From assembly GCA_034436555.1 (NCBI GenBank), contig DAOTUU010000033.1:259720-323719 (forward strand): 64,000 nt of DNA, in the 5' to 3' direction. Below, in pieces: positions 4,637 to 53,847 of the stretch. Each line of letters begins with the position of its first letter. Positions within the stretch are counted from its first letter, which is position 1. This DNA is from Chloroflexota bacterium. GTDB taxonomy: Bacteria; Chloroflexota; Limnocylindria; Limnocylindrales; CSP1-4. Under the pieces are notes generated by a model. That model worked only from the letters and a program-made list of their open reading frames with translations. It was not told the DNA's origin and searched no databases. The translations under genes were made by a program, and so were the position numbers.

Positions 4637-6562
<1,926 letters not shown>

Positions 6563-6653: not shown

Positions 6654-7853
6654 GTGCTGACCCGACGACCGGAGCCGCGTCCCTGGGACGTGATCGCGCT
6701 CGAGGTGCTGCTGACCGTCGCCTGCGCCGTCCAGGTCGGCCTGCTGCTCTGGCTGGCGGTCGCGACGTGGGAGGAGCGGGGCGCGCCGGGCATGGTCATC
6801 GGCGTGCTGGTCATGGTGGCCATGGCGGTGGGCGCCGGCTGGTTCCTGTGGCTCACGGGCGTGAACGGCTGGCTGCTGGCGGGCGCCAGCGGCGTGGCCG
6901 GGATCGAGGTCGCGTTCCTGATGGTGCTGGGCGCGACCGGCCAGGTGCTCGGCGTCGGCGCCGGACCGCTGCTGCTCAGCCTGGGCGCCGCCGTCCTGGG
7001 CGTGTCATGCGGCATCTTCCTGCCGGCGCCGTCGGCGCGGCGATACGCGCCCACCCCGCGCGCCCGCGAGGTCGCGGGCGGCCCGCCCTCGGCACCCCCG
7101 ATCTCGCCGAGCGTCGCCGCGGCGGCCGACCGCTACGCCCGCCCGGTGGTCACGGGCGCGGTCGCGCTGACCGTCGCGGGCGCCCGCCGGATGCGTCGGA
7201 CCGGCGGTCCGTCCGCGGGCCCGGTCGAACCCTCGGTCGATGCCGCCCCCGACCCCGTGCTCCAGCCTCGCCCCGGCACCCCCATCCGGACCATGGCGCC
7301 CGCGGCGGGCACGGTGGACGGGCCGCCGACTGCCGTCGCGGGAAGCGCCTCCAAGGGCTCGACGGCCACCGTGCCGGCCCCGGCCGCGGGGACGCCGGCC
7401 GCGGGCGCGTCCATCGCCGCGAGCCCCGCCACCCCGGCCGCCGGGACGCCGGCCGCCGGGACGCCGGCCGCGGGCAGCGCCACCCGCTCCGGAACCGGGC
7501 GCACCCCCGGCGCGACCCCCGATCCGGGGGCCATCGCGCGCCAGGCGCGCGCCTCCATCGACGCGGAGTTGGCCAAGCCCCGTGGCGCCGGTCGAGGTGA
7601 CGCACCCGCCGGCACCGCGCCGGGATTCCGCCACGTCGACCCGCCCCCGCCCGCCACACGCGTCCCCGCACCATCCGGGGTCGAGCCCCGGTTCAGTCCA
7701 TCGGGTGGGTCGACCCCGCCCCGGCCGCCGACCGGCTCGCCGACGGCCCGCGCCGGGGACGCCCCGCAGCCGTCCGACCCCTCCTCGGTCACGCCGAGCC
7801 TCCGGCAGGTGCCGCCGGCCGATGGCGGCGACGGCACAGGGGTCGGACGGTGA
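6654..7853 (+). CDS. Membrane protein with four predicted TM helices and a long Pro/Ala/Thr/Gly-rich low-complexity C-terminal tail
   Basis: GTG 6654 preceded by AGGAGG at 6635-6640. N-terminal hydrophobic segments ([51 protein letters not shown] ...). Very high GC3. Stop overlaps the next start (GTGA). Confidence 0.5.
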
Positions 7854-13280: not shown

Positions 13281-15131
13281 TCAGGCGGTCGGAGGCTCCC
13301 CATCGGGTGTCCTGGGCGCGAGCGCCAGGCCCAGCTCCGCCAGCTGCGCCATCTCGATCTCAGAGGGCGCGCCGAGCATCAGGTCGGATCCGGAGCTCGT
13401 CTTGGGGAACGCCATCACCTCCCGGATGTTCGTCTGGTCCGTGAGCAGGGCCGCCCAGCGGTCCACCCCCAGGGCGATCCCGCCGTGCGGTGGCGCGCCG
13501 TATTCGAACGCCTCGAGGATGCCGCTGAACTTGGCCTCCTGCTGTTCCGGGGAGTGACCCATCAGCGCGAACGAGCTGGACAGCCTCTCTCGCGTGTGGA
13601 ACCGCACCGAGCCGCCGCCCAGCTCCCAGCCGTTGAGCGCCAGGTCGTACTGCTGCGCGCGGGCACGACCGGCCGGATCATCGGGGCCGGGCCGGAAGGG
13701 ATCGCCGCTCGCGGTCACGAGCAACTCCTCGTCCTCCGGCAGCACACCGCTGAACGGGTTGTGGGTGGCGTCCCAGCGACCGTTGTCGGCGTCCCACTGG
13801 TACATCGGGAACTGATGCACCCAGACATACGCGAGCACCGCGGGATCGCCCAGGCCCAGGCGCGTCGCGACCTCGATGCGCACCTTGCCCAGCGCCTCCT
13901 GGGCATGCACGTCGCGGTCGGCGACGATGAGCGCAAGGTCACCCGGCAGCGCCCCGCAGGCCTCCGCGATCGCCCGGGCACGCCCGGCGCCCACGATCTT
14001 CACGATCGAGCCGCGCACCTCGGTCCCTGAATCCGCGGGCAGCGCGACCCACACGAGGCCGCGCGCACCGCCCTTCCGGGCGACCTCGGTCAGCTCATCG
14101 ATCTCCTTGCGGGTCGCGCCGCCCATGCCGGGCGCGGCGATGCCCATCACGCGGCCGCCGCCCGCGAGCGCGTCCTCGAACACGCCGAACCCCGACCCCC
14201 CGACCGCGGCGGCGAGGTCGTGCAGCTCCACGCCGTAGCGCAGGTCGGGCTTGTCGATGCCGAATCGGTCGATCGCCTCGCGCCACGTCAGTCGCGGGAA
14301 CGGGACCTGCGCGATGGGTCGCCCCGGGGTGACGGCCTGGCTGACCGCGATGGCCATCTCCTCCACCCAGGCCATCACGTCCTCCTCCCCGACGAAGCTC
14401 ATCTCCAGGTCCAGCTGGGTGAACTCCGGCTGGCGGTCTCCCCGCAGGTCCTCGTCACGGAAGCAGCGCGCGATCTGGAAGTAGCGGTCCATGCCCGCCA
14501 CCATCAGCAGCTGCTTGAGCTGCTGGGGCGACTGGGGCAGCGCGTACACGTTGCCCGGCTGGAGCCGCGACGGCACCACGAAATCCCGGGCACCCTCCGG
14601 CGTGGACTTGATGAGCAGCGGCGTCTCCACCTCCACGAATCCCGCGGCATGGTGCGCCTCGCGGATCGCCTGGACCAGGCGACCGCGCGCCAGGATGCGC
14701 TTCTGGAGCGGCTCGCGACGCAGATCCAGGTAGCGGTAGCGCAGCCGGATGGACTCGTCGACCGGGGCATCGGGGTCGTTGATCAGGAACGGCGTGTTGC
14801 GAGCGGTCGACAGGATCCGGATGCCGCTCGCGCGAAGCTCCACGTCCCCCGTGGCCAGCCTGGGATTGTGCGTCCCCTCCAGGCGCTCCGCGATCCGGCC
14901 GGTCACCTGGAGCACGAACTCCGAGCGCACCCCGGAGGCGACCGCGTGCGCCTCGGGCGCCTCCTCGGCGTCGAGCACCACCTGGGTGATGCCGTACCGG
15001 TCCCGCAGGTCGATGAAGATCAGCTGGCCCAGGTCTCGGCGACGGTGGACCCAGCCCGACAGGGAGACGGTGCGGCCGACGTGCTCGGGGCGCGCGTCGG
15101 CGCAGGTGAGATCGCGGTAGGAGGTCTTCAT
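13281..15131 (-). CDS. aspS: Aspartyl-tRNA synthetase
   Basis: MKTSYRDLTCADARPEHVGRTVSLSGWVHRRRDLGQLIFIDLRDRYGITQVV (OB anticodon-binding fold). Class II motifs FRDEDLRGDRQPEFTQLDLE and GGGSVRFH. ATG at 15131. Confidence 0.9.
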   Translation of the reverse strand: MKTSYRDLTCADARPEHVGRTVSLSGWVHRRRDLGQLIFIDLRDRYGITQVVLDAEEAPEAHAVASGVRSEFVLQVTGRIAERLEGTHNPRLATGDVELRASGIRILSTARNTPFLINDPDAPVDESIRLRYRYLDLRREPLQKRILARGRLVQAIREAHHAAGFVEVETPLLIKSTPEGARDFVVPSRLQPGNVYALPQSPQQLKQLLMVAGMDRYFQIARCFRDEDLRGDRQPEFTQLDLEMSFVGEEDVMAWVEEMAIAVSQAVTPGRPIAQVPFPRLTWREAIDRFGIDKPDLRYGVELHDLAAAVGGSGFGVFEDALAGGGRVMGIAAPGMGGATRKEIDELTEVARKGGARGLVWVALPADSGTEVRGSIVKIVGAGRARAIAEACGALPGDLALIVADRDVHAQEALGKVRIEVATRLGLGDPAVLAYVWVHQFPMYQWDADNGRWDATHNPFSGVLPEDEELLVTASGDPFRPGPDDPAGRARAQQYDLALNGWELGGGSVRFHTRERLSSSFALMGHSPEQQEAKFSGILEAFEYGAPPHGGIALGVDRWAALLTDQTNIREVMAFPKTSSGSDLMLGAPSEIEMAQLAELGLALAPRTPDGEPPTA

Positions 15132-15429: not shown

Positions 15430-16113
15430 TCAGGGATAGTCGCCGGGCTGCCCCACCCTTCGCCGCGACACGGTAAGCCAGGCCAGGGCGAAAGAGGCCA
15501 CGAAGACTGCGCTCAACCTCCATAGAGTGTCGGGCCTCGATGTTTCGCGACCCCGGACGGTGGCCATAGCCGTCGGCGGTAGTTGGCCAGCGCCGACAAG
15601 AGACAGGGCATCCTGGAGGTCATGAACGTCCCACACGTCTGGATAGAGCCTTCGGGGTAGCTCGAACGCCACGAGTTCCACGCCATCCCCATCCAGCTCC
15701 CACGCGACCGTATTCCCGGCGTCAGGTGCCGCGAGATCAGCCGAGGAGACGAGGTACGTGCGACCTTCAACGAATGCGTTCAGCCCGTGGCAGGCGATGA
15801 CCTCGTATGTCACGGGGTCGTGCGCCACTGAACCGCGCACGACTCGCTCCACGCTCCAGCGGTGTTGCCGCGGGAAGGCGCCCGAATCATCCCCTTGGAA
15901 CGTGCCGATGAACGCATCGCCGGTGGCACTAGCGATGCGCATCGGCGCTCTGCGCTGGAGATCGCAGTCGGCGGCTACCGGCACCGAAAGGAGCATCACT
16001 CCGACCACCCCGCCCGCGACTGCTACCCACAGTGACCGAACGCTGCGAGGTGCGATCTTCACGAGCAGGCTACTGGGTGCACTGTGAGAGGCCTGAAACG
16101 CATACGTGGACAT
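15430..16113 (-). CDS. Hypothetical protein with an N-terminal signal/TM segment and a C-terminal TM anchor; lower GC than its surroundings
   Basis: ATG 16113 with GGGAG upstream (alternative GTG at 16062). KIAPRSVRSLWVAVAGGVVGVMLLSVPVAADCD signal-like. C-terminal LWRLSAVFVASFALAWLTV. The rest of ORF 15430..16800 overlaps the protease gene out of frame and was rejected. Confidence 0.5.
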   Translation of the reverse strand: MSTYAFQASHSAPSSLLVKIAPRSVRSLWVAVAGGVVGVMLLSVPVAADCDLQRRAPMRIASATGDAFIGTFQGDDSGAFPRQHRWSVERVVRGSVAHDPVTYEVIACHGLNAFVEGRTYLVSSADLAAPDAGNTVAWELDGDGVELVAFELPRRLYPDVWDVHDLQDALSLVGAGQLPPTAMATVRGRETSRPDTLWRLSAVFVASFALAWLTVSRRRVGQPGDYP

Positions 16114-17332
16114 CGAAGAGATCTCCCGTCCAGGATTGGTGGCGCGCATACCCCTCGTCCCCGGAGTGATCGCTCTCCCAGGGCTCGCAGTCATCGTCGT
16201 TCGGAATCGAGCGGCACCCAGACTGGATGCCGTAGATGGTGTGCCCGTAGAAGACAGGACCACCACTGTCACCGCCGGCCCACTGGTAGTAGCCCAACGC
16301 CTGTAGGTATAGCCAGACGTTTGTGGACTCGTTGAATGAGGCATACGTCGTGGTGATGACCTTGTCGGCGGCCCCGTAGCCGGTGGTCCTTCCGGACAGC
16401 CGGACTTTGGTCCCGGCGACTGCGCTTCCAACAGCGTCGATCGCCCACGCCTTCTCGTCGTTGCTGCGGTAGATCTTGTGTCCCTCCCACGCTTGGATGT
16501 CGCCCAAGCCGAGAATTGCGAAATCCGTGTAGCTGGTGGAGAAGTACGCATTCTTCTGCACACCTCCAAAGTCGTGGCCGTTCTGGTCGTGCCACTGGTC
16601 GCCGCCGGTGGCGTTGAAGCAGTGACCCGCGGACAGCATTCGAATCGCTCCGCCAGCTTTCCACGCGACAGCTCCCGTCGTGCAATCGTGGGAGCCGATG
16701 GTGAGCCCGCCTCTGGTCGGTGCTTGCCAGCAGTCATGTCGAGAGTTACATGCGGTATTCTGGGATCCTCTCCCCTCGACGACACGAACGAGACCGGCAT
16801 TGAACTCCGCCTCGGTCATCGCGCGGACAGCACCGATTTGGTTTCTGGGCGCCTCGACCTGGACGATGTTGTCCGCACCCCAGATCCCGAAGCCAACGAT
16901 GTCGGAGGCTCGCTGGTCCGACCGAGATGTCCAGTCCATCAACTTGCCCAGTACACCGTCAAGGGCTGCCTGGGAGTTTGGGACCACCTCGAACCTCGAC
17001 TCCACAAAGCCGGGAAGGGCGTCGCGAGCAGCGTCCCGCTGAGGCGCGGTAGTAGTCTCAAGAACCTGGATGACGACTCTGGGCGATGGTATGTCCTCGA
17101 TGTAGATACCGCCGTAGTCGCGCGGGGCAGACTCAATCAGCTCCACCAACGGACCGACTGAGTTCTGAACCTTTTCACGGAACAGCTCGTCATCTATCGA
17201 GCCGACCATCGTCTGAGCAATCCATTCTGCCGGTACCGCGGACGCGTCTCTGGCCCCCATGACCACGGATGCGCCGATCAGCAGGAGGCATGACGAAGCC
17301 GCGACCGCAAGTCCCGGCCGACGAGTTGCCAT
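16070..17332 (-). CDS. Secreted S1 family serine protease, alpha-lytic protease/streptogrisin-like, with N-terminal pro-region
   Basis: LSAGHC (His), GDSGGP (Ser), multiple Cys pairs. Signal peptide MATRRPGLAVAASSCLLLIGASVVMGARDASA. GGAGG 6 nt upstream of ATG 17332. GC3 is clearly lower than in flanking housekeeping genes. Confidence 0.8.
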   Translation of the reverse strand: MATRRPGLAVAASSCLLLIGASVVMGARDASAVPAEWIAQTMVGSIDDELFREKVQNSVGPLVELIESAPRDYGGIYIEDIPSPRVVIQVLETTTAPQRDAARDALPGFVESRFEVVPNSQAALDGVLGKLMDWTSRSDQRASDIVGFGIWGADNIVQVEAPRNQIGAVRAMTEAEFNAGLVRVVEGRGSQNTACNSRHDCWQAPTRGGLTIGSHDCTTGAVAWKAGGAIRMLSAGHCFNATGGDQWHDQNGHDFGGVQKNAYFSTSYTDFAILGLGDIQAWEGHKIYRSNDEKAWAIDAVGSAVAGTKVRLSGRTTGYGAADKVITTTYASFNESTNVWLYLQALGYYQWAGGDSGGPVFYGHTIYGIQSGCRSIPNDDDCEPWESDHSGDEGYARHQSWTGDLFDVHVCVSGLSQCTQ

Positions 17333-17705
17333 TGCTGCCCTCCTGTGTATGGAGCGTGCCCTCACGATTGGCTGCCCCGAACGATATCACCGTCGTTAAC
17401 GCACGGACAACGGCGAGGTCAAGGCGGCGCGGCAGGCAGTGGAGCACCGTTGGGACGCAGGTTGGCGTCGGGCGTGGCGCCTGCATGCAAAGAGGCCCAG
17501 GCGGCTCTCAGGTGACGGATCGGCTGCGATGAAATCTGCCGAGTCATCGACTTCGTTGCGGGGCGCACCTCGCATCACGGCCGATCCTGATTGGGTGCTG
17601 GTGAGCATCGATTCCTTGGCGCCTAGCGCTTCGGTCGCTCGCCGCAGCCGCCCTCCGGCGTCCCGTGTCGGAACCTGTCAAGTCGGATGAGACACGCGGT
17701 GTCGA

Positions 17706-18713
17706 TCAGGTCTGTGCAGGCGGCTCCTTCGGCGGGTTGATCCAGGCGGGTCCCGGCAGCCTCGGCGGCTCGGGGTGCCTGTTGACGAACCGCTCCGGAT
17801 GGGCGGCGTATGCGGCGTCCAGGACGAGGGCGCGCCGCTCGCGGACCAGGGTCGCTGTGCCGAGGTGGACCGAGGCGGGCGTGTGGTACCCGATGCCCGA
17901 GTGGCGATGCTCGTGGTTGTAGACGTCCATGAAGGGGCCCACGAACGCCCGCGCGTCCTCGATGCTCCCGAACCGCTCCGGGAAGCCGGGGCCGTGCTTG
18001 AGCGTCTTGAAGGCCGCCTCGCTGTAGGCGTTGTCGTTGGACACGCCCGGCCGACCGTGGGTGCGCCCGATGCGCAGGTCCGCCAGCAGCTGGGTCACGG
18101 GCTTGGAGGTCATCGGCGCGCCACGGTCGGCGTGGACCGTGAGGCGGCCGGGCTCGAAGGGTCCGTGGACCCGGACCAGGTCGGCGATCCAGCCGGCCAC
18201 GAGGTCGCCCCGCTCGTGGGGGACGACCATCCAGCCCGGGCAGTACCGGCTGTACAGGTCGAGCATCACGAACAGCCGGTACCAGACGCCCCTCCGGGGT
18301 CCGGGCAGCGCGGTCGCGTCGTAGGACCACACCCGGCACGGACCGTCGGCCACCAGCTCGGGGATCGTGCGGGGCGGATGGACCGCCTGGCGCCGGCGCT
18401 CGCGGACCCCGCCGTCGGCGCGCAGGATCCGGTACATCGTGGACTCGGACGCGAGGTACGTCCCCTCGTCGAGCAGCGTGGCCCACGCCTGGGCGGGCGC
18501 CCGGTCCACGAAGCGCTCCGAGCCGAGCACGTCCTTGACCGCCTCCCGCTCGTCCGGCGTCAGGGCGTTCGTCGGCGTCGGACGGGGGCGTGGCGGACCC
18601 TGGCGGGGCGGCAGGAGCCGGCGGTACCAGGTGGCGCGCGAGCGGCCCACCGCGGCACAGGCGCCCTTCGTGCCGACCAGCGGCAGGAGGTCGGCGAACG
18701 CGCTCTCGATCAC
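17706..18713 (-). CDS. IS3-family transposase OrfB (HTH_21 + DDE rve integrase core)
   Basis: CAAVGRSRATWYRRL (HTH_21), WSYDATAL (D), HADRGAPMTS (D), SNDNAYSEAAFKTLK (E). GTG 18713 with GGACGAGG upstream. The rest of ORF 17706..19490 overlaps the IS110 transposase gene and was rejected. Confidence 0.75.
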   Translation of the reverse strand: MIESAFADLLPLVGTKGACAAVGRSRATWYRRLLPPRQGPPRPRPTPTNALTPDEREAVKDVLGSERFVDRAPAQAWATLLDEGTYLASESTMYRILRADGGVRERRRQAVHPPRTIPELVADGPCRVWSYDATALPGPRRGVWYRLFVMLDLYSRYCPGWMVVPHERGDLVAGWIADLVRVHGPFEPGRLTVHADRGAPMTSKPVTQLLADLRIGRTHGRPGVSNDNAYSEAAFKTLKHGPGFPERFGSIEDARAFVGPFMDVYNHEHRHSGIGYHTPASVHLGTATLVRERRALVLDAAYAAHPERFVNRHPEPPRLPGPAWINPPKEPPAQT

Positions 18714-18779
18714 CGCGGCTGCCTCGTCCCCTCGTCGCCCTCGGCCAGCAGCCGCTCCAAGAGCTCCGATGCTAGCCTG

Positions 18780-20075
18780 AGAATCCCCAGGCTCGGCTCG
18801 ATCCCGATCAGGCGGCCTCGTCGAGGGTGACGTGGTAGCCAAGGGCCTCGAGGCGCTTGACCGTGCGCCGCACGGTCGCTGTCCGATCGCGCTGGTCGAA
18901 CCAGGTCGGGCCCAGCTCCTGGTACACGACACCGTCCCGGAGCAGGTGATACACGATGACCAGGATGGAGTGCCCGACCGCGACGGCCGCCCGGCCGGCG
19001 CCGCGCCGCGCGGCGATGCGCCGGTACTGGGCGGCGAGATAGGTGCCCTTCGTATGGGCGGCCGCGTGGGCCGCCTCGACGAGCGCGGTGCGGAGCCAGG
19101 CGTTGCCCGGGCCGGTCGCCCCGGATCGGCGCTTGCCGGCGCTCTCGTCGGTGCCAGGGCAGACCCGCGCCCAGGAGGCGAGGTGGGCTGCGGACGGGAA
19201 GCGGGACATGTCCGGGCCGATCTCCGCGAGGATGGCCTCAGCCGTCCGCAGCGCGACACCCGGGATGGAGTCGACGAGCGCCAGCGTGGCCCCGAAAGGG
19301 CGCATCCGCTCCGCCACCTCGGCCGACAGGGTCGCGATCTCAGCGTCCAGGAAGTCGATGTGCCGCAGCTGCGCCCCGAGCATCCGACGCTGGTGCTCGC
19401 CGAGCAGGCCGCGGAGCGCGGCCACGAGCCGGTCGTGCTTGGAGCGCAGTCGCCCGCGTGCGAGCCCCGCGAGCGCCTCGGCATCGTCACCCCCGGCCAC
19501 GATCGCCTCGAGCATCGCCCGCCCTGACACCCCCAGCAGGTCGGAGGCGACCGCGCCGAGCTTGATGTCGGCGCCCTCGAGGACCTTGTGCAGCCGCTGG
19601 ACCTCGCGGCCGCGCTCGTCGATCAGCCTGCGCCGGTGGCGCACGAGCTCGCGCTGGGCCCGGTCGGGGACGAAGCTGCCCCGCAGCAGGCCGTGGCGCA
19701 GCAGGTCGGCGACCCGCTCCGCGTCCCTCACGTCGGTCTTGCGTCCGGGCACCGCGCGCATGTGGCGGGCGTTCACGAGGAGCAGCTCGAGGCCGCCACC
19801 CTCGAGCAGGTTGTACACCGGCTTCCAGCAGACGCCGGTGCTCTCCATCGCGGCGTGGGTCACGCCCCGATCGGCGAGCCAGTCGGCCAGCTCGAGCAGG
19901 CCGGCGGTGACCGCACCGAACGTGCGCACCTCGCGGCCCTCGGGGGTGATGACGCAGGCGACCACCGTGTCCCGGTGGACGTCGAGCCCTGCGCAACGTT
20001 CGTGGAGCACCTCCATCGCGCACCTCCATCCGGTCTGGCGGTGGCGGGCTCGACGACCGGAGCGCGAGAATCTAG
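18780..20075 (-). mobile_element. IS110-family insertion sequence nested inside the IS3 element
   Basis: The transposase gene fills most of the element. Junctions carry TAGCCTG/AGAATC (18771-18784) and GAGAATC/TAGCCTG (20066-20079). Boundaries are approximate. Confidence 0.65.
18808..20016 (-). CDS. IS110-family transposase (DEDD N-terminal domain + C-terminal transposase_20 domain)
   Basis: MEVLHERCAGLDVHRDTVVACV (DEDD motif 1), ESTGVCWKP. C-terminal LRTALVEAAHAAAHTKGTYLAAQYRRIAARRG. GGAGGTG RBS 5 nt upstream of ATG 20016. Confidence 0.9.
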   Translation of the reverse strand: MEVLHERCAGLDVHRDTVVACVITPEGREVRTFGAVTAGLLELADWLADRGVTHAAMESTGVCWKPVYNLLEGGGLELLLVNARHMRAVPGRKTDVRDAERVADLLRHGLLRGSFVPDRAQRELVRHRRRLIDERGREVQRLHKVLEGADIKLGAVASDLLGVSGRAMLEAIVAGGDDAEALAGLARGRLRSKHDRLVAALRGLLGEHQRRMLGAQLRHIDFLDAEIATLSAEVAERMRPFGATLALVDSIPGVALRTAEAILAEIGPDMSRFPSAAHLASWARVCPGTDESAGKRRSGATGPGNAWLRTALVEAAHAAAHTKGTYLAAQYRRIAARRGAGRAAVAVGHSILVIVYHLLRDGVVYQELGPTWFDQRDRTATVRRTVKRLEALGYHVTLDEAA

Positions 20076-20568: not shown

Positions 20569-20891
20569 GGCCGCATGATGCGCGCGCTCCATGGTCAGCG
20601 TCGTGATGCTCATGGTCGTCAGGCTGGTGTCCTTCTCGCCCTGTGGGATGACGGGTCGCTGCCCGTGTCTCACCCTATGCTGACAGACAGGGAAGCATGC
20701 AACCGCCGCTGGACAGAAGACTCCACCGCCAGCGTGTGCGATCGCGCCCTTCGCACGCTGCCCGCGCACCGCAAAGACCACGAGGCTGGCCTCGACCAGC
20801 GTCCGTCCCGGGCGCCGCCGAGGATTGCCGCGTCGCGCCGCTCCGCGCTGGTCGGGTGTGCCCCTTCGCGGCTTCGAACAGGTCGCCCCTG

Positions 20892-21155
20892 ATGGCACTA
20901 CATCATGCACAATGCAGCTATGGTGCATCGTGTGAGAACACCGTCGACCTTTCGCCCGCTGCGCGTGCATTGGAAGTCGCCGCAGCGCGGGGCATGTCGC
21001 TCTCGGCGACGATCGCGGACCTGACGTCACTGGGTCTGGAGCGCATGCGCGAACCGGTGACGCTGTCCATCGATGCGCAGTCTGGGTTCCCGGTGATGCG
21101 GTTCGGGTGGCGCATCACGAACGAGGATATCAGGGCCGCCCTGGACGACGAGTGA
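20892..21155 (+). CDS. Small ribbon-helix-helix-like protein, possible orphan antitoxin/regulator; low GC3
   Basis: VDLSPAARALEVAAARGMSLSATIADLTSLGLERMRE resembles RHH/CopG. Codon usage (gca cta cat cat gca caa tgc agc tat) is unlike the host genes. A weak call. Confidence 0.3.
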   Translation: MALHHAQCSYGASCENTVDLSPAARALEVAAARGMSLSATIADLTSLGLERMREPVTLSIDAQSGFPVMRFGWRITNEDIRAALDDE

Positions 21156-21300: not shown

Positions 21301-22413
21301 TCAGGTGGGTTCGGGGTCGTCAGGATCGCCGGTCGGGACGCCTTCGGCGGTCGCCGCGGACCGGCCATGCGGGTCGCCTGGGCGATGGACGTCGCGATAC
21401 CGCCAGCGCCGGTAGCGGTCACGGGCGGTCGCCCCCAGCCCCAGGACACGGGAGCCGACGGGAGCCAGCGTCAGGCGCCACGCTCCCACGTAGTCGACCT
21501 CGTGCCCGCCGAAGCCGCTCTTGAACTGCTCGATGCCCTCGCGCGGCAGGCCCCACAGGTCGTACTGCGTGTAGCCAGCCGCCTTCATGCGCCGCAGCGC
21601 CTCCCACTTGAGGAGGTAGTTCGCGCGACGCCGGGCGCCCTTCTCGGTGGTGCCGCCGTACAGGTCCGCGACCCGCCGGCCGCAGCCGACGAGGAGCACC
21701 GCCGCCACCGCCTCGCCCGTGTCCACGGCCTCCGCGAACAGCAGGTGGGCCTTGCCGCGCGGCGCCAGGTGGGTCCACATCTCCCGGAACGCCTCCTCGC
21801 TCCGGGGCGCGATGCCGGCCCGCTGCAGTGCCTCCGCGTGGATCGCGTGCAGCTCGCCGATGCGTGCCGCGTCGCCCGCGACCACGCACACTCCGAGCCG
21901 CTCCGACTTGGACACCGACTGGCGAGTCTTGCGGTGCATGCCCGCCAGGATCGCTGGCTCGTCCTGGGCCAGGTCGATGATGCGCGTGCGGTCGGGCTGG
22001 ACGTGGTCGGTGCGCCGCCATCCTGCGCGGATCAGCTCGCGCGCCAGCCGCCCGTCCCCCGCGTCCGCCTCGGGCTCCATCACGATCGTCGCTAGCCGGT
22101 GACGCCGCCCCGCCTCGCGCAGGCGCCGGGTGACGGCCAAGACCTGCGCCCGGCTCAGCGTCCCGTCCGCGGTGACGGGTCCGCGCGCGAGGTAGCCCAG
22201 CCCCCAGGGCAGGCCACGCGGACGCTGCACCAGCACCTGCGCCCCCACGAGGCCGCCGTCCGGGTCCGCGGCGACGCGGAACGAGGACCAGCCATTCGGC
22301 CGCTTGACCGCCGCCCAGGCGCTCGACTGGAGGTGGCAGGGCGCCGCGGACGCCGCCAGGAACGCCTCCCAGGCCACCTCGTCGACCTCCAGCCGGGCGG
22401 CGGCGTCGGTCAC
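21301..22413 (-). CDS. FemAB-family peptidoglycan aminoacyltransferase (tRNA-dependent lipid II peptidyltransferase-like)
   Basis: GTG 22413 overlaps the hisS stop (GTGA). WEAFLAASAAPCHLQSSAWAAVKRPNGW, YLLKWEALRRMKAAGYTQYDLWGLPREGIEQFKSGFGGHEV (Fem C-terminal signature). 370 aa. Confidence 0.8.
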   Translation of the reverse strand: MTDAAARLEVDEVAWEAFLAASAAPCHLQSSAWAAVKRPNGWSSFRVAADPDGGLVGAQVLVQRPRGLPWGLGYLARGPVTADGTLSRAQVLAVTRRLREAGRRHRLATIVMEPEADAGDGRLARELIRAGWRRTDHVQPDRTRIIDLAQDEPAILAGMHRKTRQSVSKSERLGVCVVAGDAARIGELHAIHAEALQRAGIAPRSEEAFREMWTHLAPRGKAHLLFAEAVDTGEAVAAVLLVGCGRRVADLYGGTTEKGARRRANYLLKWEALRRMKAAGYTQYDLWGLPREGIEQFKSGFGGHEVDYVGAWRLTLAPVGSRVLGLGATARDRYRRWRYRDVHRPGDPHGRSAATAEGVPTGDPDDPEPT

Positions 22414-23714
22414 GCGTCGCCGGTCCCGTGCTTGTGCTGCGCCTCGCCGCGCTGGAGGTCGCGGACAAGGTCGTCCAGGTCCACCCGGCGCTGGGTCCCT
22501 GCCTGGAGGTCCTTCACCTGGACCTGGCCCGCGGCGAGCTCATCTCCGCAGATGACCGCGAAGTGGGCGCCCTCCCGCGAGGCTCCCTCGAGCTGCTTGC
22601 CCAGCTTGCGCGGCGCCAGGTCCGCCCGCGCGGCGAGACCCCCGGCGCGCAGGAGCGTGGCGACCCGCAGGCGCGGCACGGTGTCCGCCGGATCGGCGCC
22701 CACCACCACGATGGCGGCGCGGGGTGGTGCGATCGGCTCCGCGCCCTGCTCCGCGAGCGCCAGCACCACCCGGTCAAGGCCCAGCCCGAAGCCGATGCCC
22801 GGCGTGGGCCGGCCGCCCAGCAGCTCCACCAGGCCGTCGTAGCGACCGCCGCCGCCGAGCGCCTGCTGCTGGCCCTCTGCCCCGGCGCGGTAGAACTCGA
22901 ACGCGGTGCGGGTGTAGTAGTCGAGGCCGCGCACCAGGCGGGGCGCGGGTCGGGGGCTGACGCCCAGCGCCGCGAGGTGCGCCCGGACGCCGTCATGGTG
23001 CGCCCGACAGGCGTCGCACAGGTGGTCCGTGATGGTGGGCGCGTCCGCGATGAGCGACTGCATCCGCTCGTCCTTGGAGTCCAGGAGCCGCAGCGGCGCC
23101 GTCTCCAGGCGCTGCCGCTCAAGCTCCGGCAGGTCATCCGCGAACCGTCGGAAGTGCGCCTGGAGCAGGGCCACGTACGCCGGGCGGCAGGCGCCATCGC
23201 CGATGGAGTTGAGCAGCACCTCGACACCCGACACGCCCGCCACGGCGTAGAACCGCAGCCCCAGCTCGACGATCTCGGCGTCGATGCCCGGGCCCGGGTC
23301 GCCGATCGCCTCCACGTCGAACTGCCAGAACTGGCGATACCGTCCCGCCTGGGGCCGGTCGTAGCGGAACATCGGCCCGGTCAGGGTCAGCTTCACGGGC
23401 TGGGGCAGCGTCTGCATGCCGTGCTGGATGTATGCCCGCACGAGTCCCGCGGTCGGCTCCGGACGGAGCGCCCAGCGCTCGCGCTCCTGGTCGCCGCGGC
23501 CGGCCTGGACCCGGAACAGCTCCTTCTCCACCACGTCCGTCACGGCGCCCACGCCCCGCTCGAACACCTCGCTCTGCTCGAACAGGGGCGTCTCGATGGG
23601 CTGGTACCCGTAGCGCGTCGCGAGGTCGCGGGCGATCGTCTCGAGACGCAGGAAGGCGGCCCGTTCGGGCGGCAGCAGGTCGCGGGTGCCCCGCGGGGCT
23701 TGGTACCTCGGCAC
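22410..23714 (-). CDS. hisS: Histidyl-tRNA synthetase
   Basis: Class II motifs 1/2/3 (RYQAPRGTRDLLP, FRYDRPQAGRYRQFWQ, GGGRYDGL). HisA/HisB anticodon-binding C-terminus. 434 aa. Confidence 0.9.
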   Translation of the reverse strand: MPRYQAPRGTRDLLPPERAAFLRLETIARDLATRYGYQPIETPLFEQSEVFERGVGAVTDVVEKELFRVQAGRGDQERERWALRPEPTAGLVRAYIQHGMQTLPQPVKLTLTGPMFRYDRPQAGRYRQFWQFDVEAIGDPGPGIDAEIVELGLRFYAVAGVSGVEVLLNSIGDGACRPAYVALLQAHFRRFADDLPELERQRLETAPLRLLDSKDERMQSLIADAPTITDHLCDACRAHHDGVRAHLAALGVSPRPAPRLVRGLDYYTRTAFEFYRAGAEGQQQALGGGGRYDGLVELLGGRPTPGIGFGLGLDRVVLALAEQGAEPIAPPRAAIVVVGADPADTVPRLRVATLLRAGGLAARADLAPRKLGKQLEGASREGAHFAVICGDELAAGQVQVKDLQAGTQRRVDLDDLVRDLQRGEAQHKHGTGDA

Positions 23715-23751
23715 GGCCGAAGGATAGCGGCGTGGCCTACGATGTGCCGCG

Positions 23752-24573
23752 ATGTCCGTGTCCGCGAACGACCGCCCGGCTGCCTCCTCCGGCGACCGCC
23801 TGGGCTATCTCATCGGCGTCTTCGGGTGCGCCTTCTCGATCACCGCGCTGTGGCTGTGCATGCGCGCCGTGTTGGACATCGGCGGCTCCTGCGGGTCGGG
23901 TGGGCCCTACGAGATCGCCGTGCCCTGCCCGCCAGGGGTCGACCTGCTGCTCGTGCTGGCGTTCCCGCTGGGGTTCGCCTCGGTCGGGCTGATGGTCTGG
24001 AAGGGAGCCCGCCTGGGCGCCGCCTGGGTGGCCCTGGCGGGGCTGGCGTGGCCCGCGGTGTTCCTGTCGCTGGGCTGGAACTTCATCGAGTACGGGCTCT
24101 GGCCGCCGGTCACCGGGGACCCCGGGCTGGGATTCCTCATCCCCGGGGTGGTCTTCCTGGTGATGGGCGGTGTGCCGCTCTGGTTCTGGTGGATCGGCCG
24201 CGGCGATGCCCCGGCCGTGCCGGGATCGCGAGGGACGCGTGCCCGGTCGGATCTGCGCCAGCTGCGCGACCTGCGGGATGCGATGGCGCACGCGGCGGTC
24301 GACGCGCGCCGCAGGGGTGGCCCGACGGCCGACCGGCTGACCGTGCGCCAGGCGATGTCCCTGCCGGGGTCGTCGGACTCGGCCCCGCCGCCATCCCCGG
24401 CGGTCGCGGTCGCGCCGGCCCCCGACGCCGGCGGCGAGGGGGACCGCAGCGAGGCGTTCGTGGCCCAGCTGGAACGCCTCGCGGTGCTCCACCGCGCGGG
24501 CGACCTGTCGCTGCTCGAGTTCCAGGCCGCCAAGGCCGCGCTCCTCGCGAACGCGGGCGGGGACCCGCGATGA
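23752..24573 (+). CDS. Membrane protein with C-terminal SHOCT domain
   Basis: Four or more TM helices, then LERLAVLHRAGDLSLLEFQAAKAALL (SHOCT-like short C-terminal motif). Confidence 0.6.
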   Translation: MSVSANDRPAASSGDRLGYLIGVFGCAFSITALWLCMRAVLDIGGSCGSGGPYEIAVPCPPGVDLLLVLAFPLGFASVGLMVWKGARLGAAWVALAGLAWPAVFLSLGWNFIEYGLWPPVTGDPGLGFLIPGVVFLVMGGVPLWFWWIGRGDAPAVPGSRGTRARSDLRQLRDLRDAMAHAAVDARRRGGPTADRLTVRQAMSLPGSSDSAPPPSPAVAVAPAPDAGGEGDRSEAFVAQLERLAVLHRAGDLSLLEFQAAKAALLANAGGDPR

Positions 24574-30741: not shown

Positions 30742-32330
30742 GATGACGTCCCGGTCGCCGTCCAGCCCAGGCCCGCCAGCACCTCGCGCGCCACGGTCGC
30801 CTCGTCCCAGGCCAGCGTCCCCGATGCCCGCTCGATGGTCTGCTCGTGGCCCTTGCCGGCGAGCAGCACGACATCGCCGGGCCTCGCGCGGGCCATCGCC
30901 TGTTCGATGGCGGCACGCCGGTCGGCGATGAGGAGGAGCGACCGGCCGCGGATGCCGCCACCCTGCTCGGCACCCTCGGCGATCTCCTCGAGGATCGCCT
31001 CGGGATCCTCCGAGCGGCCATCCTCGTCGGTGAGCACGACCAGCCGGCAGCGCTCCGCGGCCACGCGGCCCATCTCCGGTCGCTTCGTGCGGTCACGGTC
31101 GCCCGCGGAGCCGAACACCGCGACGAGCCCGCCCCCGTCGGCCGCCGCCGCCGGCGCGAGGTTGTCCAGCACCTTCGCCAGCGAGTCGGCGGTGTGGGCA
31201 TAGTCCACGATGACGCCGAAGGGCTGTCCCCGGTCGATCCGCTGCATCCGTCCGGGCACGCTCTCCACGGCCCCGATGCCGGCGCGCATGGCGGCCGGAT
31301 CCAGGCGCAGCGCCTCTCCCACCCCGATCGCGGCGAGCGCGTTGTGGGCGTTGAAGCGGCCCGCCAGCCGCAGCGCCAGGTCGTCCTCCCAGCGGGGCGT
31401 GCGGACGCGCAGTCGCATCCCGGTCGCGTCCTCTCGCAGACTGAGCGTCCGGATGTCGGCGGTCGGGCCCGCGCCATAGCCGTGGACGGTCGCGCCCGCC
31501 GCGCGCGCGGCGGCGCCGAACGCGCCCGCGACGGGATCGTCCAGGTTGACGACGGCGTGCTTGCCGTGGCCCTTCTCGGGGTTGGCGGGACCGCTCGCGA
31601 GCCACTCGAACAGGCGTCGCTTGGCCGCGATGTACGCGTCGCGGGTGCCGTGGAACTCGAGGTGCTCGGAGGTGACGTTGGTGAGCACGCCGACGTCGTA
31701 GGCGACCTCCGCGACACGGTCCTGGGCGAGGCCGTGGGAGGTGGACTCGACGACGGCCCAGCGATCTCCGGCATCGCGCATCGCGGCCAGCTGGGCCTGG
31801 AGCTCGGGCGCCTCGGGCGTGGTCGCCCGGGCCGGGTTGCCCCGGCTGCGCCCGCCCACGATGACATCGATGGTGCCGGTCAGGCCGGTCTGGAGGCCGC
31901 ACGCCTCGAGCATCGCCCGCACCAGCCACGCGGTGGTCGTCTTGCCGTCCGTGCCGGTGATGCCGACCACGCCCAGGTCGCGGCTCGGCTGATCGTGGAT
32001 CCAGGCCGCGGCCAGCGCGAGGGCCCGCCGCCCCTGGGTCACCAGCAGCTGCGGCACCGGCAGACCGGGCGTCGCTCGCTCCGCCACGACCGCCACCGCG
32101 CCCGAGGCCACCGCCGCCGGGACATGGTCGTGGCCGTCGGCGTGCCGGCCCCCGATGGCCACGAACAGGTCGCCCGGCGCCACGCGTCGGGAGTCCATCG
32201 CGACGGCGCGCACGAGGAGGTGCGCCGCCGGCTCCGCGTTCACCGCGAGGATGGCGCGCAGCAGCCCGCGCGCCGCGAGCAGGCCAACGAGACGGCCGAG
32301 CATCCGGCTCCGGTCGTCGGCCCGCGTCAT
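30738..32330 (-). CDS. murE: UDP-N-acetylmuramoyl-L-alanyl-D-glutamate--diamino acid ligase (MurE)
   Basis: MTRADDRSRMLG ... VVGITGTDGKTTTAWLV (Mur ligase P-loop), VVESTSHGL, DYAHTADSL, VFGSAGDRD. 530 aa. Start overlaps the upstream Fem stop (ATGA). Confidence 0.85.
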   Translation of the reverse strand: MTRADDRSRMLGRLVGLLAARGLLRAILAVNAEPAAHLLVRAVAMDSRRVAPGDLFVAIGGRHADGHDHVPAAVASGAVAVVAERATPGLPVPQLLVTQGRRALALAAAWIHDQPSRDLGVVGITGTDGKTTTAWLVRAMLEACGLQTGLTGTIDVIVGGRSRGNPARATTPEAPELQAQLAAMRDAGDRWAVVESTSHGLAQDRVAEVAYDVGVLTNVTSEHLEFHGTRDAYIAAKRRLFEWLASGPANPEKGHGKHAVVNLDDPVAGAFGAAARAAGATVHGYGAGPTADIRTLSLREDATGMRLRVRTPRWEDDLALRLAGRFNAHNALAAIGVGEALRLDPAAMRAGIGAVESVPGRMQRIDRGQPFGVIVDYAHTADSLAKVLDNLAPAAAADGGGLVAVFGSAGDRDRTKRPEMGRVAAERCRLVVLTDEDGRSEDPEAILEEIAEGAEQGGGIRGRSLLLIADRRAAIEQAMARARPGDVVLLAGKGHEQTIERASGTLAWDEATVAREVLAGLGWTATGTSS

Positions 32331-33424
32331 GCGCCCGCCCCCCCGGCGGTCGAGGCCATGGGCCCGGTGGTGCCGCGGAGGCGGAGCCGCCGGACACCCC
32401 GGACCCACAGGCGCCGACCCAGGACCATCGCGTCCCGCAGGATGGGCAGGGTCACCAGGTCGAGCGCGCCGACGTAGCGGACCTCGTGGCCGCCGAACCC
32501 CGCCTTGAACTGCTCGATGCCCGGGTGCGCCAGGCCCCACATGTCGTAGGTGTCGCAGCCCGCCGCGATCGACCGGCGCAACGCCTCCCACTTCAGCAGG
32601 TAGTTGGCCCGGGAGTCGGCGCCCGCCTGCGTCATGCCGCCATACGGCTCGGCCATCCGGTCGCCGCAGCGCACCAGGAACAGGGCCGCGACCGGGACCC
32701 CGTCGGACGTGTGCGCCAGCAGCAGCGATGCCTGGCCCGTCGGCAGGAAGGCATCCCACACCGCCTCGTAGGAGGCCAGGGACCGATGGAAGAAGCCCGT
32801 GCGCGCGGCGGTGTCGGCGAGGATGGCGTGGAACGCCGGCAGGTCCGCGCGGCCGCCCTCCCGGACCGCCACGCCAGAGCGCGTGGCCCGGCCCACGTAT
32901 TGCCGCCACTTGGAGCGCAGGCCCGCCCACACGGCGGCCTCGCCGGGCGCGAGGTCCACCACCCGGCTGCGGTCGTGCTGGACGGCGTCCGCATCCCGCC
33001 ACCCGCAGTGCCGCAGCAGCAGCGCCGCCGACACGTCCTCCCTGCCGGGATCCACCGTCACGTGGGTCAGGCGGTGGCGCCAGGCCGCCCTGCGCAGCGC
33101 GGCGGTGAACGCCGCGACCGACGGCTCGTCCCAGGTCGTGGCGATCGGACCGCGCGGCGCATAGCCCATCGCGAACGGTCCGGGACCCAGCCTGCGGACG
33201 AGGACCTGGGCGCCGATCGGACCGCTGCCGCCGTCGGCGACGACTCGTGTCGAGGTCCAGCCGTTGGGCCGCTTGCTGATGGCCCAGGCGGTTTGCTGGA
33301 GATGGTTCGGCGTGGCGCTCGCGGCGACGAAGGCATCCCATGTCGCGTCGTCTCGTCGGAGGGCGGCGAGCGAGGGACCGGCCTCGACCGCCCGGCCCGT
33401 CGGGATGCCGGGAGTGGTGGTCAT
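32327..33424 (-). CDS. FemAB-family peptidoglycan aminoacyltransferase
   Basis: ATG 33424 overlaps the upstream stop (ATGA). ATWDAFVAASATPNHLQQTAWAISKRPNGW ... NYLLKWEALRRSIAAGCDTYDMWGLAHPGIEQFKAGFGGHEV. Confidence 0.8.
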   Translation of the reverse strand: MTTTPGIPTGRAVEAGPSLAALRRDDATWDAFVAASATPNHLQQTAWAISKRPNGWTSTRVVADGGSGPIGAQVLVRRLGPGPFAMGYAPRGPIATTWDEPSVAAFTAALRRAAWRHRLTHVTVDPGREDVSAALLLRHCGWRDADAVQHDRSRVVDLAPGEAAVWAGLRSKWRQYVGRATRSGVAVREGGRADLPAFHAILADTAARTGFFHRSLASYEAVWDAFLPTGQASLLLAHTSDGVPVAALFLVRCGDRMAEPYGGMTQAGADSRANYLLKWEALRRSIAAGCDTYDMWGLAHPGIEQFKAGFGGHEVRYVGALDLVTLPILRDAMVLGRRLWVRGVRRLRLRGTTGPMASTAGGAGA

Positions 33425-35592
33425 GGGCCCGCCCGGAGCCTGCGCACGGCGCCCACCGACCGACGCGAGACGCGCCCCGCCCGATCGGCCCAGGGACGCA
33501 GAACGATGCGGCGCGCGGGCTCCCGGTCCACCCACACCGCCCCGAAGCCCGCCTTGTGCTCGTAGAGTCCGTGGTTCGGATCGCCCGGTCGTGGCGGCTC
33601 ACGACGACCGGGCAGGTCCACGCCGCCCAGATCGACATGACGCGCTCCCTCCAGCAGCGCGTCCGCCAGGAGCGTCGATCGCACCAGGTGCATGGTGCCC
33701 GGCAGCTCCCGCCGCCGGGTCGCGTCATCGGCGGAGTACGCCGTGGCGAACGCACCCCCCTGGAGGAACACCAGCACGCCGCCGAGCACCGCACCCTCGC
33801 GCTCGGCGACGTACAGGCGTGCCTGACCTGCCGCGATGAGCCGGGCCCAGAAGGCGAGATAGCCCAGCTCCGGGCGCATCGGGATGCCCAGGTCCTCCGC
33901 CCGCGCCACGAGCAGCTCGCCGAAGCGAGCGAGACGATCGCCCGCGGCGTCCACGCGGACCGAGACGCCCGACCTCTCGGCGCCCCGGATGCGCTGGCGC
34001 GTGCTCTTGGAGTAGGAGCCGAACAGCGCATCGACGTCCCGACCACCGGGCAGGACCAGGCGCATGACGTGGATGCTCGGCTGGACCTCCGCGGTGACCC
34101 CGAAGCCCGAGCGCTCCAGCGCCGCCGCCCAGGCCGGGTCGGCATCCCGCTCGGGATCGAGGAACAGCTCCGTGGCGCCCGCGTCGCGGGCCACACCCGC
34201 CAGCCGGACCACCCGATCGACGACGACCTCCACCGGGTCGCCGGCGTGCGCGGGACCCTTGCGACAGGTGGCGATGACGCCCGGCACGAGGCGCTGGCGG
34301 CGCAGCACGAGCAGGGCGCCCCGATCGTCCCCCAGGTCGACGAACCGAGGGTCCGCGCCCTGGGACCGGCGATGGTCCGCCCATGCCGTCCCCTGCATCA
34401 CGTGACCCCCCGGCACATCCACGGTCCGGGCGTTCCAGCCGTCGGGAGGAGCGACGGGCGGCCCGGGGGGCGCGTCCGACCGACCGGTCACGCCGTGACG
34501 GACGGTCCGGACGAGCCGGAGGCCAGCCGAGCGGCCCCGCTCTGCGACGGTCACGAGGGAGGCGGCCCGCGGGTCGGTCAGTAGGCGCCATGCGGCGACG
34601 TACCGCCGCTCCGTGCCACCGAACCCGGCCTTGAACGTCGCGACGCCGTCCGCGTCGGTGCCCCACATGTCGTAGCGCGCCATGCCCCGCTCGGCGGATC
34701 GGCGGATGGCCTCCCACTTCAGGAGGTGGTTCGCGCGACCGTGGGCGCCCTCCTGCGAGGAGGCGCCGTAGAGCTCGATGACCCGGTCCCCGCAGTCCAG
34801 CAGGAGCAGCGTCGCGACGGCCGCTCCGCCCGGCGCCCGCGCGATGAGCAGCCGCGCTCCGCCGCGCCGGGCCCACGCCGCATGCACGGCCCGGAACGCG
34901 GCGCCCGGTTCGAAGCCGACGCGCCGTGCCGTCTCGCGATACAGCGCCTCGAAATCGTCGAGGCCCTCCGCCCCCGCCTCGGCCACCAGGAATCCCGAGC
35001 GCCGCGCCTTGTTGACCGACCAGCGCGCGCTGGAGCGCAGGTCCCCCCACAGTTCGACCTCGGGCCGTCGCAGGTCGATGATCCGGGTGCGGTTGATCTG
35101 GATCTCGCCCGCGGGCTCCCATCCCGCCGCGGACAGCCAGCCCGCGGCCGGACCCTCGGCGTCGAGCTCCGGGTCGATCGTGACGTGGATCAGCCGCTCC
35201 TCCGCGGCGACGGCGCGCACCGCGCGGGTGAACGCGATGACGCCCGGCCCGTCGACCGTGGCGGCCACCGGGCCCCGAGGCGCATAGGCACGCGCCCACG
35301 GACCCGGCCGCAGCGATCGGATGAGCATCTGCGCCCCGATCGGTCGCCCATCCGACTCGGCGATCACCCGGCGCGTCCGCCAGCCCCTCGTGGCGTTCGC
35401 CTCCGCCCATGCGGTCAGCTGGGGGAACGATCCGTTCGGCGATGCCGCGACGAACGCGTCCCAGGCATCCGGGTCCTGGCGCAGCCGGTCCGCCAGGCGC
35501 GGCGTCGGGACATCCGACTGGACGCGGGTCTGGGCGCCCCTCCGGTCAACAGCGTCCGTGGCCGTCGCTGGAGCGGCGGTCACGTCGGTCAT
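33421..35592 (-). CDS. Tandem double FemAB-domain protein (two complete Fem aminoacyltransferase modules in one ~723-aa polypeptide)
   Basis: Module 1: PDAWDAFVAASPNGSFPQLTAWAEANATRGW ... NHLLKWEAIRRSAERGMARYDMWGTDADGVATFKAGFGGTER. Module 2: HVMQGTAWADHRRSQGADPRF ... YEHKAGFGAVWVD. ATG 35592 overlaps the murJ stop. Confidence 0.75.
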   Translation of the reverse strand: MTDVTAAPATATDAVDRRGAQTRVQSDVPTPRLADRLRQDPDAWDAFVAASPNGSFPQLTAWAEANATRGWRTRRVIAESDGRPIGAQMLIRSLRPGPWARAYAPRGPVAATVDGPGVIAFTRAVRAVAAEERLIHVTIDPELDAEGPAAGWLSAAGWEPAGEIQINRTRIIDLRRPEVELWGDLRSSARWSVNKARRSGFLVAEAGAEGLDDFEALYRETARRVGFEPGAAFRAVHAAWARRGGARLLIARAPGGAAVATLLLLDCGDRVIELYGASSQEGAHGRANHLLKWEAIRRSAERGMARYDMWGTDADGVATFKAGFGGTERRYVAAWRLLTDPRAASLVTVAERGRSAGLRLVRTVRHGVTGRSDAPPGPPVAPPDGWNARTVDVPGGHVMQGTAWADHRRSQGADPRFVDLGDDRGALLVLRRQRLVPGVIATCRKGPAHAGDPVEVVVDRVVRLAGVARDAGATELFLDPERDADPAWAAALERSGFGVTAEVQPSIHVMRLVLPGGRDVDALFGSYSKSTRQRIRGAERSGVSVRVDAAGDRLARFGELLVARAEDLGIPMRPELGYLAFWARLIAAGQARLYVAEREGAVLGGVLVFLQGGAFATAYSADDATRRRELPGTMHLVRSTLLADALLEGARHVDLGGVDLPGRREPPRPGDPNHGLYEHKAGFGAVWVDREPARRIVLRPWADRAGRVSRRSVGAVRRLRAGP

Positions 35593-53790: not shown

Positions 53791-53847
53791 CATCCGGCCT
53801 GGAGTGCGGGGGCGTCGGTCGGCTCGCCAGCCGCCTTCAGCTCAGAC

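Follow-up and report, generated by a model that had tools for sequence, protein, structure and literature searches.

A divergent protease of the streptogrisin/alpha-lytic type and its membrane-tethered partner: a putative enzyme and self-protection pair encoded on a small foreign insert

The window analyzed here, a stretch of 64,000 nt from contig DAOTUU010000033.1 of a Chloroflexota bacterium, carries on its minus strand a gene for a secreted serine protease followed by a gene for a small membrane-anchored protein, which we refer to as the partner (Table 1). It is very probable that the two gene products act jointly, most likely with the partner as a cell-surface inhibitor of the protease. 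Both open reading frames (ORFs) had been described in a first-pass annotation of the DNA, together with the His and Ser motifs, the Shine–Dalgarno sequence, the signal peptide and the pro-region of the protease, and all of these were recovered in the present analysis. The third-position GC content tracks the protease frame from approximately position 17300 to 16100 and then moves to the partner frame. Independent gene callers give the same partner of 227 amino acids (aa) in four other assemblies, one of which, contig L002, is 100% identical to the window and therefore represents the same strain. Together with the homologues and the helices predicted by AlphaFold2 (AF2) that are described below, these results bear out the earlier view that the partner is a real and membrane-anchored protein. 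An overlap of about 14 codons had been proposed for the two genes; this holds (44 nt) provided that the partner starts at ATG 16113, whereas an alternative in-frame start at GTG 16062, which lacks a Shine–Dalgarno sequence, would replace the overlap by a gap of 7 nt. The start at ATG 16113 is regarded as putative, because the homologues align only from about aa 19–30 onward. Two further frames, an antisense ORF of likewise 227 aa (16478–17161, plus strand) and a 456-aa extension of the partner frame, were rejected as artefacts of the high GC content.

Table 1. Features of the protease/partner locus in window coordinates (TM, transmembrane; CDS, coding sequence; GC3, third-position GC; IS, insertion sequence; OB, oligonucleotide/oligosaccharide-binding).
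Feature	Position	Strand	Basis or remark
Prepro S1E-type serine protease, CDS, 420 aa + stop	16070–17332	-	ORF, GC3 frame, S1E profile matches, homologues
Shine–Dalgarno sequence of the protease, AGGAGG	17339–17344	-	Sequence; 5 nt before ATG at 17332
Protease signal peptide, aa 1–~33	17234–17332	-	RR n-region, hydrophobic core, ASA/VP; sequence, cleavage site putative
Protease pro-region, aa ~34–193	16754–17233	-	DYGGIYIED block shared with P0003 and the L019 protease
Catalytic domain and Cys-rich C-terminal extension, aa 194–420, 8 Cys	16073–16753	-	Alignments, S1E profile
His237 (AGHC)	16619–16630	-	Alignment
Asp270	16511–16531	-	Alignment
Ser356 (GDSGGP)	16256–16273	-	Alignment
Partner, CDS, 227 aa + stop	15430–16113	-	ORF, GC3, independent gene calls, homologues
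Shine–Dalgarno sequence of the partner, GGGAG	16123–16127	-	9 nt upstream of ATG 16113
Partner N-terminal signal peptide/TM, helix aa 23–41, ending VAA/DC	15967–16113	-	AF2 helix; family A-x-A-(D)-C
Partner extracytoplasmic OB-fold domain, aa 50–175, TIMP/NTR-like	15589–15966	-	AF2, Foldseek, conservation
LPPTA, local form of the near-invariant LPxT(D/S/A)	15568–15582	-	Family alignment
Partner C-terminal TM anchor, aa 196–218, then RRR cytoplasmic tail	15460–15528	-	AF2 helix; family hydrophobicity and basic tail
IS3-type transposase (rve, rve_3, HTH_32)	17709–18713	-	Pfam; flanks the protease/partner cassette
IS110-family transposase	18811–20016	-	Pfam DEDD_Tnp_IS110 and Transposase_20

The catalytic triad of the protease consists of His237 (in MLSAGHC, aa 232–238), Asp270 (in YTDFAIL) and Ser356 (in GDSGGP, aa 354–359), which align in chymotrypsin order with the triad residues of the Streptomyces griseus proteases 1hpg and 1sgc. 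Matches of the single sequence in the PDB are weak (1hpg, SGPE, E 1.6e-3; SGPA, E 0.11), and the scores against Pfam Trypsin and Trypsin_2 (16.6 and 13.8 bits) lie below the respective cut-offs of 27.6 and 20.6, which reflects divergence and not a missing fold. A profile of the protease family reaches the S. fradiae protease (2sfa, E 8.7e-16), SGPB (4e-13) and alpha-lytic protease (~1e-11), and also matches SGPA, SGPE, TFPA of T. fusca and the Lysobacter lytic endopeptidases (overall E 9e-16 to 1e-8); trypsins reach only 0.04–0.1 with the same profile. On these profile matches to S1E structures, which agree with the earlier assignment to the alpha-lytic type, we classify the protease as a divergent new member of the streptogrisin/alpha-lytic group (MEROPS S1E). 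Its relatives are few: a word-indexed search of 5.8 billion proteins returned the protease itself and one other sequence, P0003 (26% identity), and a scan of the genome collection with the protease alignment gave no match. A closer relative (30% identity over 374 aa, E 6e-49) is encoded on contig L019, where it adjoins a homologue of the partner. From an alignment of two sequences, AF2 gave a protease model with a predicted local distance difference test (pLDDT) score of 31.

With the known S1E enzymes (SGPA, SGPB, SGPE, the S. fradiae protease, alpha-lytic protease, L1/L5 and TFPA) the protease shares the triad order, the prepro layout, the Cys pair of the AGHC loop (here C217–C238) and an N-terminal extension of about 160 aa. 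Solved mature S1E enzymes align only from about aa 195 onward (profile positions 187–195), and the approximately 160 residues that follow the signal peptide are therefore interpreted as a pro-region. Unlike its counterparts, however, this pro-region does not match the Pfam alpha-lytic pro-region family PF02983, and the family profile reached no pro-region chain in the PDB. The protease further differs from the S1E enzymes by its great divergence, which places it below the Pfam gathering thresholds, and by two additions that are shared with its few relatives only, an ACNSRxDCW motif where the pro-region meets the mature enzyme and a C-terminal tail of about 45 aa that is rich in Cys and ends in VCxSGxxxC. 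The N-terminus MATRRPGLAV (17320–17332, minus strand) contains a weak twin-arginine-like motif; export via Sec is more likely, because the L019 homologue lacks the RR pair. No S1E enzyme is known to us that is encoded together with a tethered partner, and a search of the literature yielded no such case.

The partner had no match in sequence searches against Pfam, NCBIfam and the PDB, and a word-indexed protein search returned only the partner itself; when this search was repeated with a profile of the partner family, just two members on short contigs were added. An exhaustive HMMER search of 1.84 billion representatives revealed a family of 76 proteins at E ≤ 1e-3, 21 of them at E ≤ 1e-10, where 76 counts representative clusters at 50% identity and is a lower bound on the size of the family. 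Most members comprise about 200 aa, align from end to end and were found only by this exhaustive search. The family is so far known almost only from metagenomes, its named members being annotated as "hypothetical protein," and a narrow partner alignment run against the genome collection recovered one locus in a Chloroflexota metagenome-assembled genome and three metagenome loci. According to the family alignment and motif counts, the proteins share a common order of signal peptide, a domain of about 125 aa, an LPxT(D/S/A) motif, a linker, a TM helix and a basic tail, which implies that the domain is extracytoplasmic and tethered to the membrane. The domain is marked by the conserved blocks GTxFxGT, WxVERVYAG, C, GxRYL[VF]ST and N[ST]xAW. 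The partner contains only two Cys residues (C50 and C108), both near-invariant in the family; the N-terminal one adjoins the predicted signal-peptide cleavage site and is followed by a variable segment. The family consensus around this site is A-x-A-D-C, with A-x-A-C in about one-fifth of the members. A lipoprotein reading was rejected, as the partner has no lipobox of the form [LVI][ASTVI][GAS]C: its sequence is V-A-A-D-C, and the family as a rule has Asp at position -1.

In the LPxT motif, L178, P179 and T181 are conserved in at least 90% of the family sequences. The motif is located 40–55 aa from the C-terminus in about 55 of the 76 representatives and is followed by a linker of 10–25 aa, the TM helix and an Arg/Lys tail. 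Its family consensus is LPPTD, and one member, P0007, has LPDTG. With its TM helix and basic tail this layout resembles a sortase-type or other sorting signal, but it fits no known model; a canonical sortase substrate was rejected for the partner, given LPPTA in place of LPXTG, the spacer of 10–25 aa before the TM helix and the lack of a match to the LPXTG-anchor hidden Markov model. On contig L007, which also carries a second protease/partner pair, a protein of 270 aa (5379–6191, minus strand) has a signal peptide ending in AADC, weakly resembles the protease pro-region (E 0.055) and carries LPDSS, linker, TM helix and basic tail at its C-terminus. As this protein carries a partner-like C-terminus, it suggests that the C-terminal module is a sorting or anchoring signal common to these organisms.

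AF2 applied to the partner-family alignment predicted aa 50–175 with a pLDDT above 90, the two helices at aa 23–41 and 196–218, and a linker of low pLDDT. The best Foldseek matches of the model in the PDB are the C345C/NTR domains of complement C4, C5 and C3, the NTR domain of PCOLCE and the inhibitory domain of TIMP-1 from complexes with matrix metalloproteases; they rank above generic OB folds with probabilities of 0.95–1.0, at weak E-values (7e-3 to 0.2) and TM-scores of 0.47–0.51 on the target. Neither PF00965 nor PF01759 matched the partner or any of 50 family members, the partner-family profile matched no TIMP or NTR chain in the PDB, and a Foldseek search of viral structures gave only generic, low-probability OB matches. 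The predicted OB-type barrel can thus weakly be described as TIMP/NTR-like, in the sense of a resemblance between models and structures; membership of the TIMP/NTR family is not established, because the partner has two Cys residues and not six and shows no profile signal. Like the animal proteins (netrin, C345C, PCOLCE), the partner would have an OB-type barrel followed by a helix, and a first Cys at or next to the mature N-terminus that plausibly forms a single disulfide with the barrel (C50–C108). Unlike them, it would have one disulfide where they have three and would, as predicted for most family members, begin with Asp-Cys; it is tethered to the membrane and linked to a serine protease instead of a metalloprotease. 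The first-pass statement that the partner has no recognizable domain consequently stands for the sequence searches against Pfam, NCBIfam and the PDB; it does not hold for the fold, as seen with AF2 and Foldseek, or for the family, as seen with HMMER.

The pairing of the two genes is not restricted to the window. Approximately ten contexts of the partner family could be evaluated, a small sample in which most contigs are short, and in four of them an S1 protease or its remnant lies directly upstream on the same strand (the window, L019, L007 and L016/L015), which for a rare class of genes greatly exceeds the chance expectation. On L019, 11 nt separate the protease homologue introduced above from a downstream homologue of the partner (35% identity, E 4e-24), so that order and spacing are kept although both genes have diverged to 30–35% identity. 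On L007, a prepro S1-type protease is followed 12–39 nt on by the family member P0016. On L016/L015, a 94-aa C-terminal remnant of a protease (GGDSGAPV...KVCVVGGSSEC) is separated by 13 nt from an intact partner, an arrangement that resembles an orphaned immunity gene. An S1 motif scan of these contigs detected no other S1 gene. Absence or frameshifting of the partner in homologous islands had been named in the first-pass annotation as a result that would speak against a functional pair; the pair is kept in these distant relatives, on L016 with the remnant in place of the protease.

The other contexts have no protease. A partner paralogue is located upstream on L010–L012, a divergent DeoC gene adjoins the family member on L013, a gene for a BNR-like repeat protein on L014 (2–1144) and an oxidoreductase gene on L017; on L018 the partner homologue lies between ruvA and ruvB, and L006 and L009 encode tandem two-domain secreted forms (L006:343–1380, L009:1333–2370). 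These tandem forms, which also include P0012, P0027 and P0028, have no TM helix and end in ...(S/G)ADRTPG. In P0053 the partner domain is fused to a Kelch-like propeller, and family members adjoin BNR-like/Kelch genes both on L014 and on L016 (1163–2410), which points to a general binding module that is used beyond proteases. A DDE transposase gene near the family member on L015 (1273–2598) and a phage-type integrase gene on L010 (1–593) fit a partner family that often moves horizontally.

A different arrangement was found for the protease homologue P0003 (L001:800–1999), which has no partner downstream. Upstream of it lies a gene for a protein of 117 aa (L001:435–788, plus strand) with a signal- or lipoprotein-like N-terminus; this protein duplicates, as a free-standing unit, the second half of the P0003 pro-region (45% identity over 65 aa, E 4e-12). 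In the S1E group, pro-regions tightly inhibit the mature enzyme, and the product of this gene may be a separate tethered inhibitor of the pro-domain type that replaces the OB-fold partner.

The partner family is undescribed, but the principle of encoding a protease together with an anchored inhibitor is established. In Tannerella forsythia, potempins, among them the membrane-anchored OB-fold inhibitors PotA, PotC and PotD, are co-transcribed with secreted KLIKK peptidases (PMC9890683). As in the window, a small anchored beta-barrel protein is combined there with a secreted, prodomain-bearing peptidase, and stop and start codons overlap or nearly abut; the potempins also include inhibitors of serine peptidases and occur as "orphan" copies (PMC9890683). 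They differ in being encoded by the upstream gene, in their size of 98–132 aa and in their lipid anchor on a Gram-negative outer membrane (PMC9890683), whereas the partner is encoded downstream in a high-GC genome, has a C-terminal TM anchor and shows no detectable sequence relation to them. A potempin-like constellation, i.e., a gene that abuts or overlaps that of a secreted peptidase in a conserved pairing, is found in the window and on L019, L007 and L016. The second precedent is the Mtz-Tim system of Listeria monocytogenes, in which the secreted metzincin Mtz cleaves and releases the TIMP-like lipoprotein Tim; its authors knew of no other TIMP-like proteins in bacteria (PMC8235301). Here, too, the gene of the anchored protein, which is predicted to be TIMP-like, directly follows the protease gene with no promoter between them, and the locus is derived from a mobile element; however, Mtz is a metzincin and not a serine protease, and Tim is a lipoprotein with the lipobox LTAC (PMC8235301). 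The partner, which has no lipobox and is anchored by its C-terminus, is likened to Tim here on the published description of the latter.

We tentatively favor, at little short of an even chance, a model in which the two genes encode a secreted S1E protease and its tethered cognate inhibitor or self-protection protein. The cassette would be bicistronic and horizontally acquired. Its first gene would give rise to a secreted prepro serine endopeptidase of the S1E type, which is presumably folded by its own N-terminal pro-region, and the second, tightly or translationally coupled and probably co-transcribed with the first, would yield a type-I membrane protein whose signal peptide is removed to leave an (Asp-)Cys N-terminus. 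Its OB-fold domain of about 125 aa, probably stabilized by one disulfide, would thereby be displayed on the outer face of the cytoplasmic membrane, tethered by the flexible linker, the C-terminal TM helix and the basic tail. There it could bind the co-expressed protease and hold it inactive at, or keep it away from, the envelope of the producer. This model is based on the inhibitor-like fold, the outward-facing tether and the tight coupling of the genes, on the persistence of the L016 partner beside a decayed protease and the many "orphan" copies of the partner, and on the different candidate for a tethered inhibitor that accompanies P0003. The first-pass annotation had considered an inhibitor or immunity protein and a maturation chaperone side by side; the TIMP/NTR-like predicted fold favors the former, and a chaperone is disfavored in view of the protease's own pro-region. 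Several observations weigh against an inhibitor. The role is deduced by analogy from a structural model whose Foldseek statistics are weak and which has no counterpart in TIMP or NTR profiles, and the evaluated contexts are few and mostly short. TIMPs inhibit metalloproteases via the free amino group of Cys1; here the linked enzyme is a serine protease, and the predicted mature N-terminus is mostly Asp-Cys. Around six of the ten partner-family members are not beside a protease and have unrelated neighbors (ruvA/ruvB, DeoC, an oxidoreductase, Kelch/BNR propellers, paralogues), the L007 protease shows no detectable homology to that of the window beyond the active site, and the P0003 gene has no partner downstream at all.

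The same features could also be explained in other ways. The partner might be a substrate or pro-effector whose linker is cut by the protease, possibly at or near LPxT(D/A), to release a domain that acts elsewhere, similar to the release of Tim by Mtz. The layout of an anchored TIMP-like protein encoded right after a secreted protease in a mobile-element-like locus would suit such a mechanism, as would the near-invariant linear motif at the boundary between the domain and the low-pLDDT linker and the occurrence of anchor-less secreted tandem forms. However, motif and anchor are equally conserved in members without a nearby protease, so that a housekeeping enzyme or a structural role is the likelier explanation of the LPxT motif, and the L016 partner persists despite the degradation of its protease; we consider cleavage of the partner unlikely. 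Animal NTR modules such as that of PCOLCE are often binding or enhancer modules and not inhibitors, and the PCOLCE domain is among the structural matches of the partner. It is thus conceivable, albeit improbable, that the partner serves as a dock without inhibitory action, or as a maturation factor, and holds the protease at the surface or aids its folding or activation, for which the gene coupling, the conserved synteny and the tethered topology would be equally suitable; the conserved pro-region, the usual foldase of S1E enzymes, would presumably already provide for folding. Equally improbable in our view is functional independence of the genes, the partner being a general envelope protein with an OB fold, perhaps a surface protein sorted by a sortase or in another way, that came to lie downstream of a protease by chance. 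The many contexts without a protease neighbor, the fusion or proximity of the domain to Kelch/BNR propellers and the tripartite, sorting-signal-like C-terminus agree with this explanation, but a protease or remnant at most 40 nt upstream on the same strand in four independent and very divergent loci, and the co-divergence of both genes at unchanged order and spacing, argue against it.

If the partner does inhibit the protease, it would represent a new structural class among the bacterial inhibitors of chymotrypsin-fold enzymes, give a function to an unnamed family of at least 76 clusters at 50% identity, and show how a monoderm-type bacterium with a high-GC genome could shield its envelope from its own, possibly bacteriolytic protease. 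It would also lengthen the very short list of bacterial TIMP/NTR-like proteins and thereby bear on the origin of an animal module for protease control, and the matched pair of protease and inhibitor would be a useful reagent. A more far-reaching proposal, which we regard as rather doubtful, is that the partner founds a new bacterial family of tethered inhibitors with a TIMP/NTR fold that are directed at S1E serine proteases and not at metalloproteases, which possess their own sorting or processing signal (LPxTD, linker, TM helix, basic tail) and many orphans of which defend against foreign proteases. If true, this would be the first link of the NTR fold to the control of serine proteases in bacteria.

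The protease and partner genes stand out from their surroundings by composition. The G+C content of the window is 72.7% and the third-position GC of host genes is about 0.9, whereas the protease and partner genes have 61.4 and 64.8% GC, compared to 71.5% for aspS and 74.2% for hisS; the homologous pairs on other contigs likewise have 61–65% GC. The pair is flanked by aspS (13284–15092) on one side and by a FemAB-family gene and hisS (21304–23804) on the other, and this interval also contains the IS3-type and IS110-type transposase genes listed in Table 1. On L002 the IS3-type transposase gene is arranged with the cassette as in the window. Neither an integrase gene nor a tRNA gene was found beside the pair, which leaves a classical integrative island unsupported, and a composite transposon was ruled out, as neither flanking repeats, direct or inverted, nor another copy of an IS occur in the window. 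Neither protease nor partner had a tblastn match among plasmids and phages, and megablast of the IS region against plasmids was likewise negative. The "mobile island" of the first-pass annotation is therefore retained with respect to foreign composition and adjoining IS elements, but not as a classical island: judged by base composition and gene content, the pair belongs to a small (~6-kb), IS-associated foreign insert. A scan for promoter- and terminator-like consensus sites, which is ill-suited to DNA of 70% GC, found none around the pair.

The IS110-type gene directly adjoins the IS3-type rve gene on its 5' side (17706–20016, minus strand), and an IS3 orfA is not evident there; the arrangement may stem from insertion of the IS110 element into the IS3-type one. 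Just past the IS110 element, an ORF of 167 aa (20652–21155, plus strand) has an atypically low third-position GC of 0.71 and no Pfam match, and it may be a further foreign gene of the same insert. The window also encodes at least two FemAB-family proteins (21304–22539 and 32327–33535, both minus strand), with a third related DNA copy at about 34591–34820, and a MurJ flippase (35592–37151, minus strand), all of host-like GC content. In staphylococci, cross-bridge enzymes of the FemAB type are known to confer immunity to lytic peptidases; ordinary cell-wall biosynthesis is the more likely role of the FemAB and MurJ genes near this possibly lytic protease. Finally, short G+C-rich tandem or direct repeat arrays with periods of 24–54 nt occur at 7378–7500, 53301–53804, 58213–58365 and 63174–63478 and are presumably repetitive coding or intergenic sequence.

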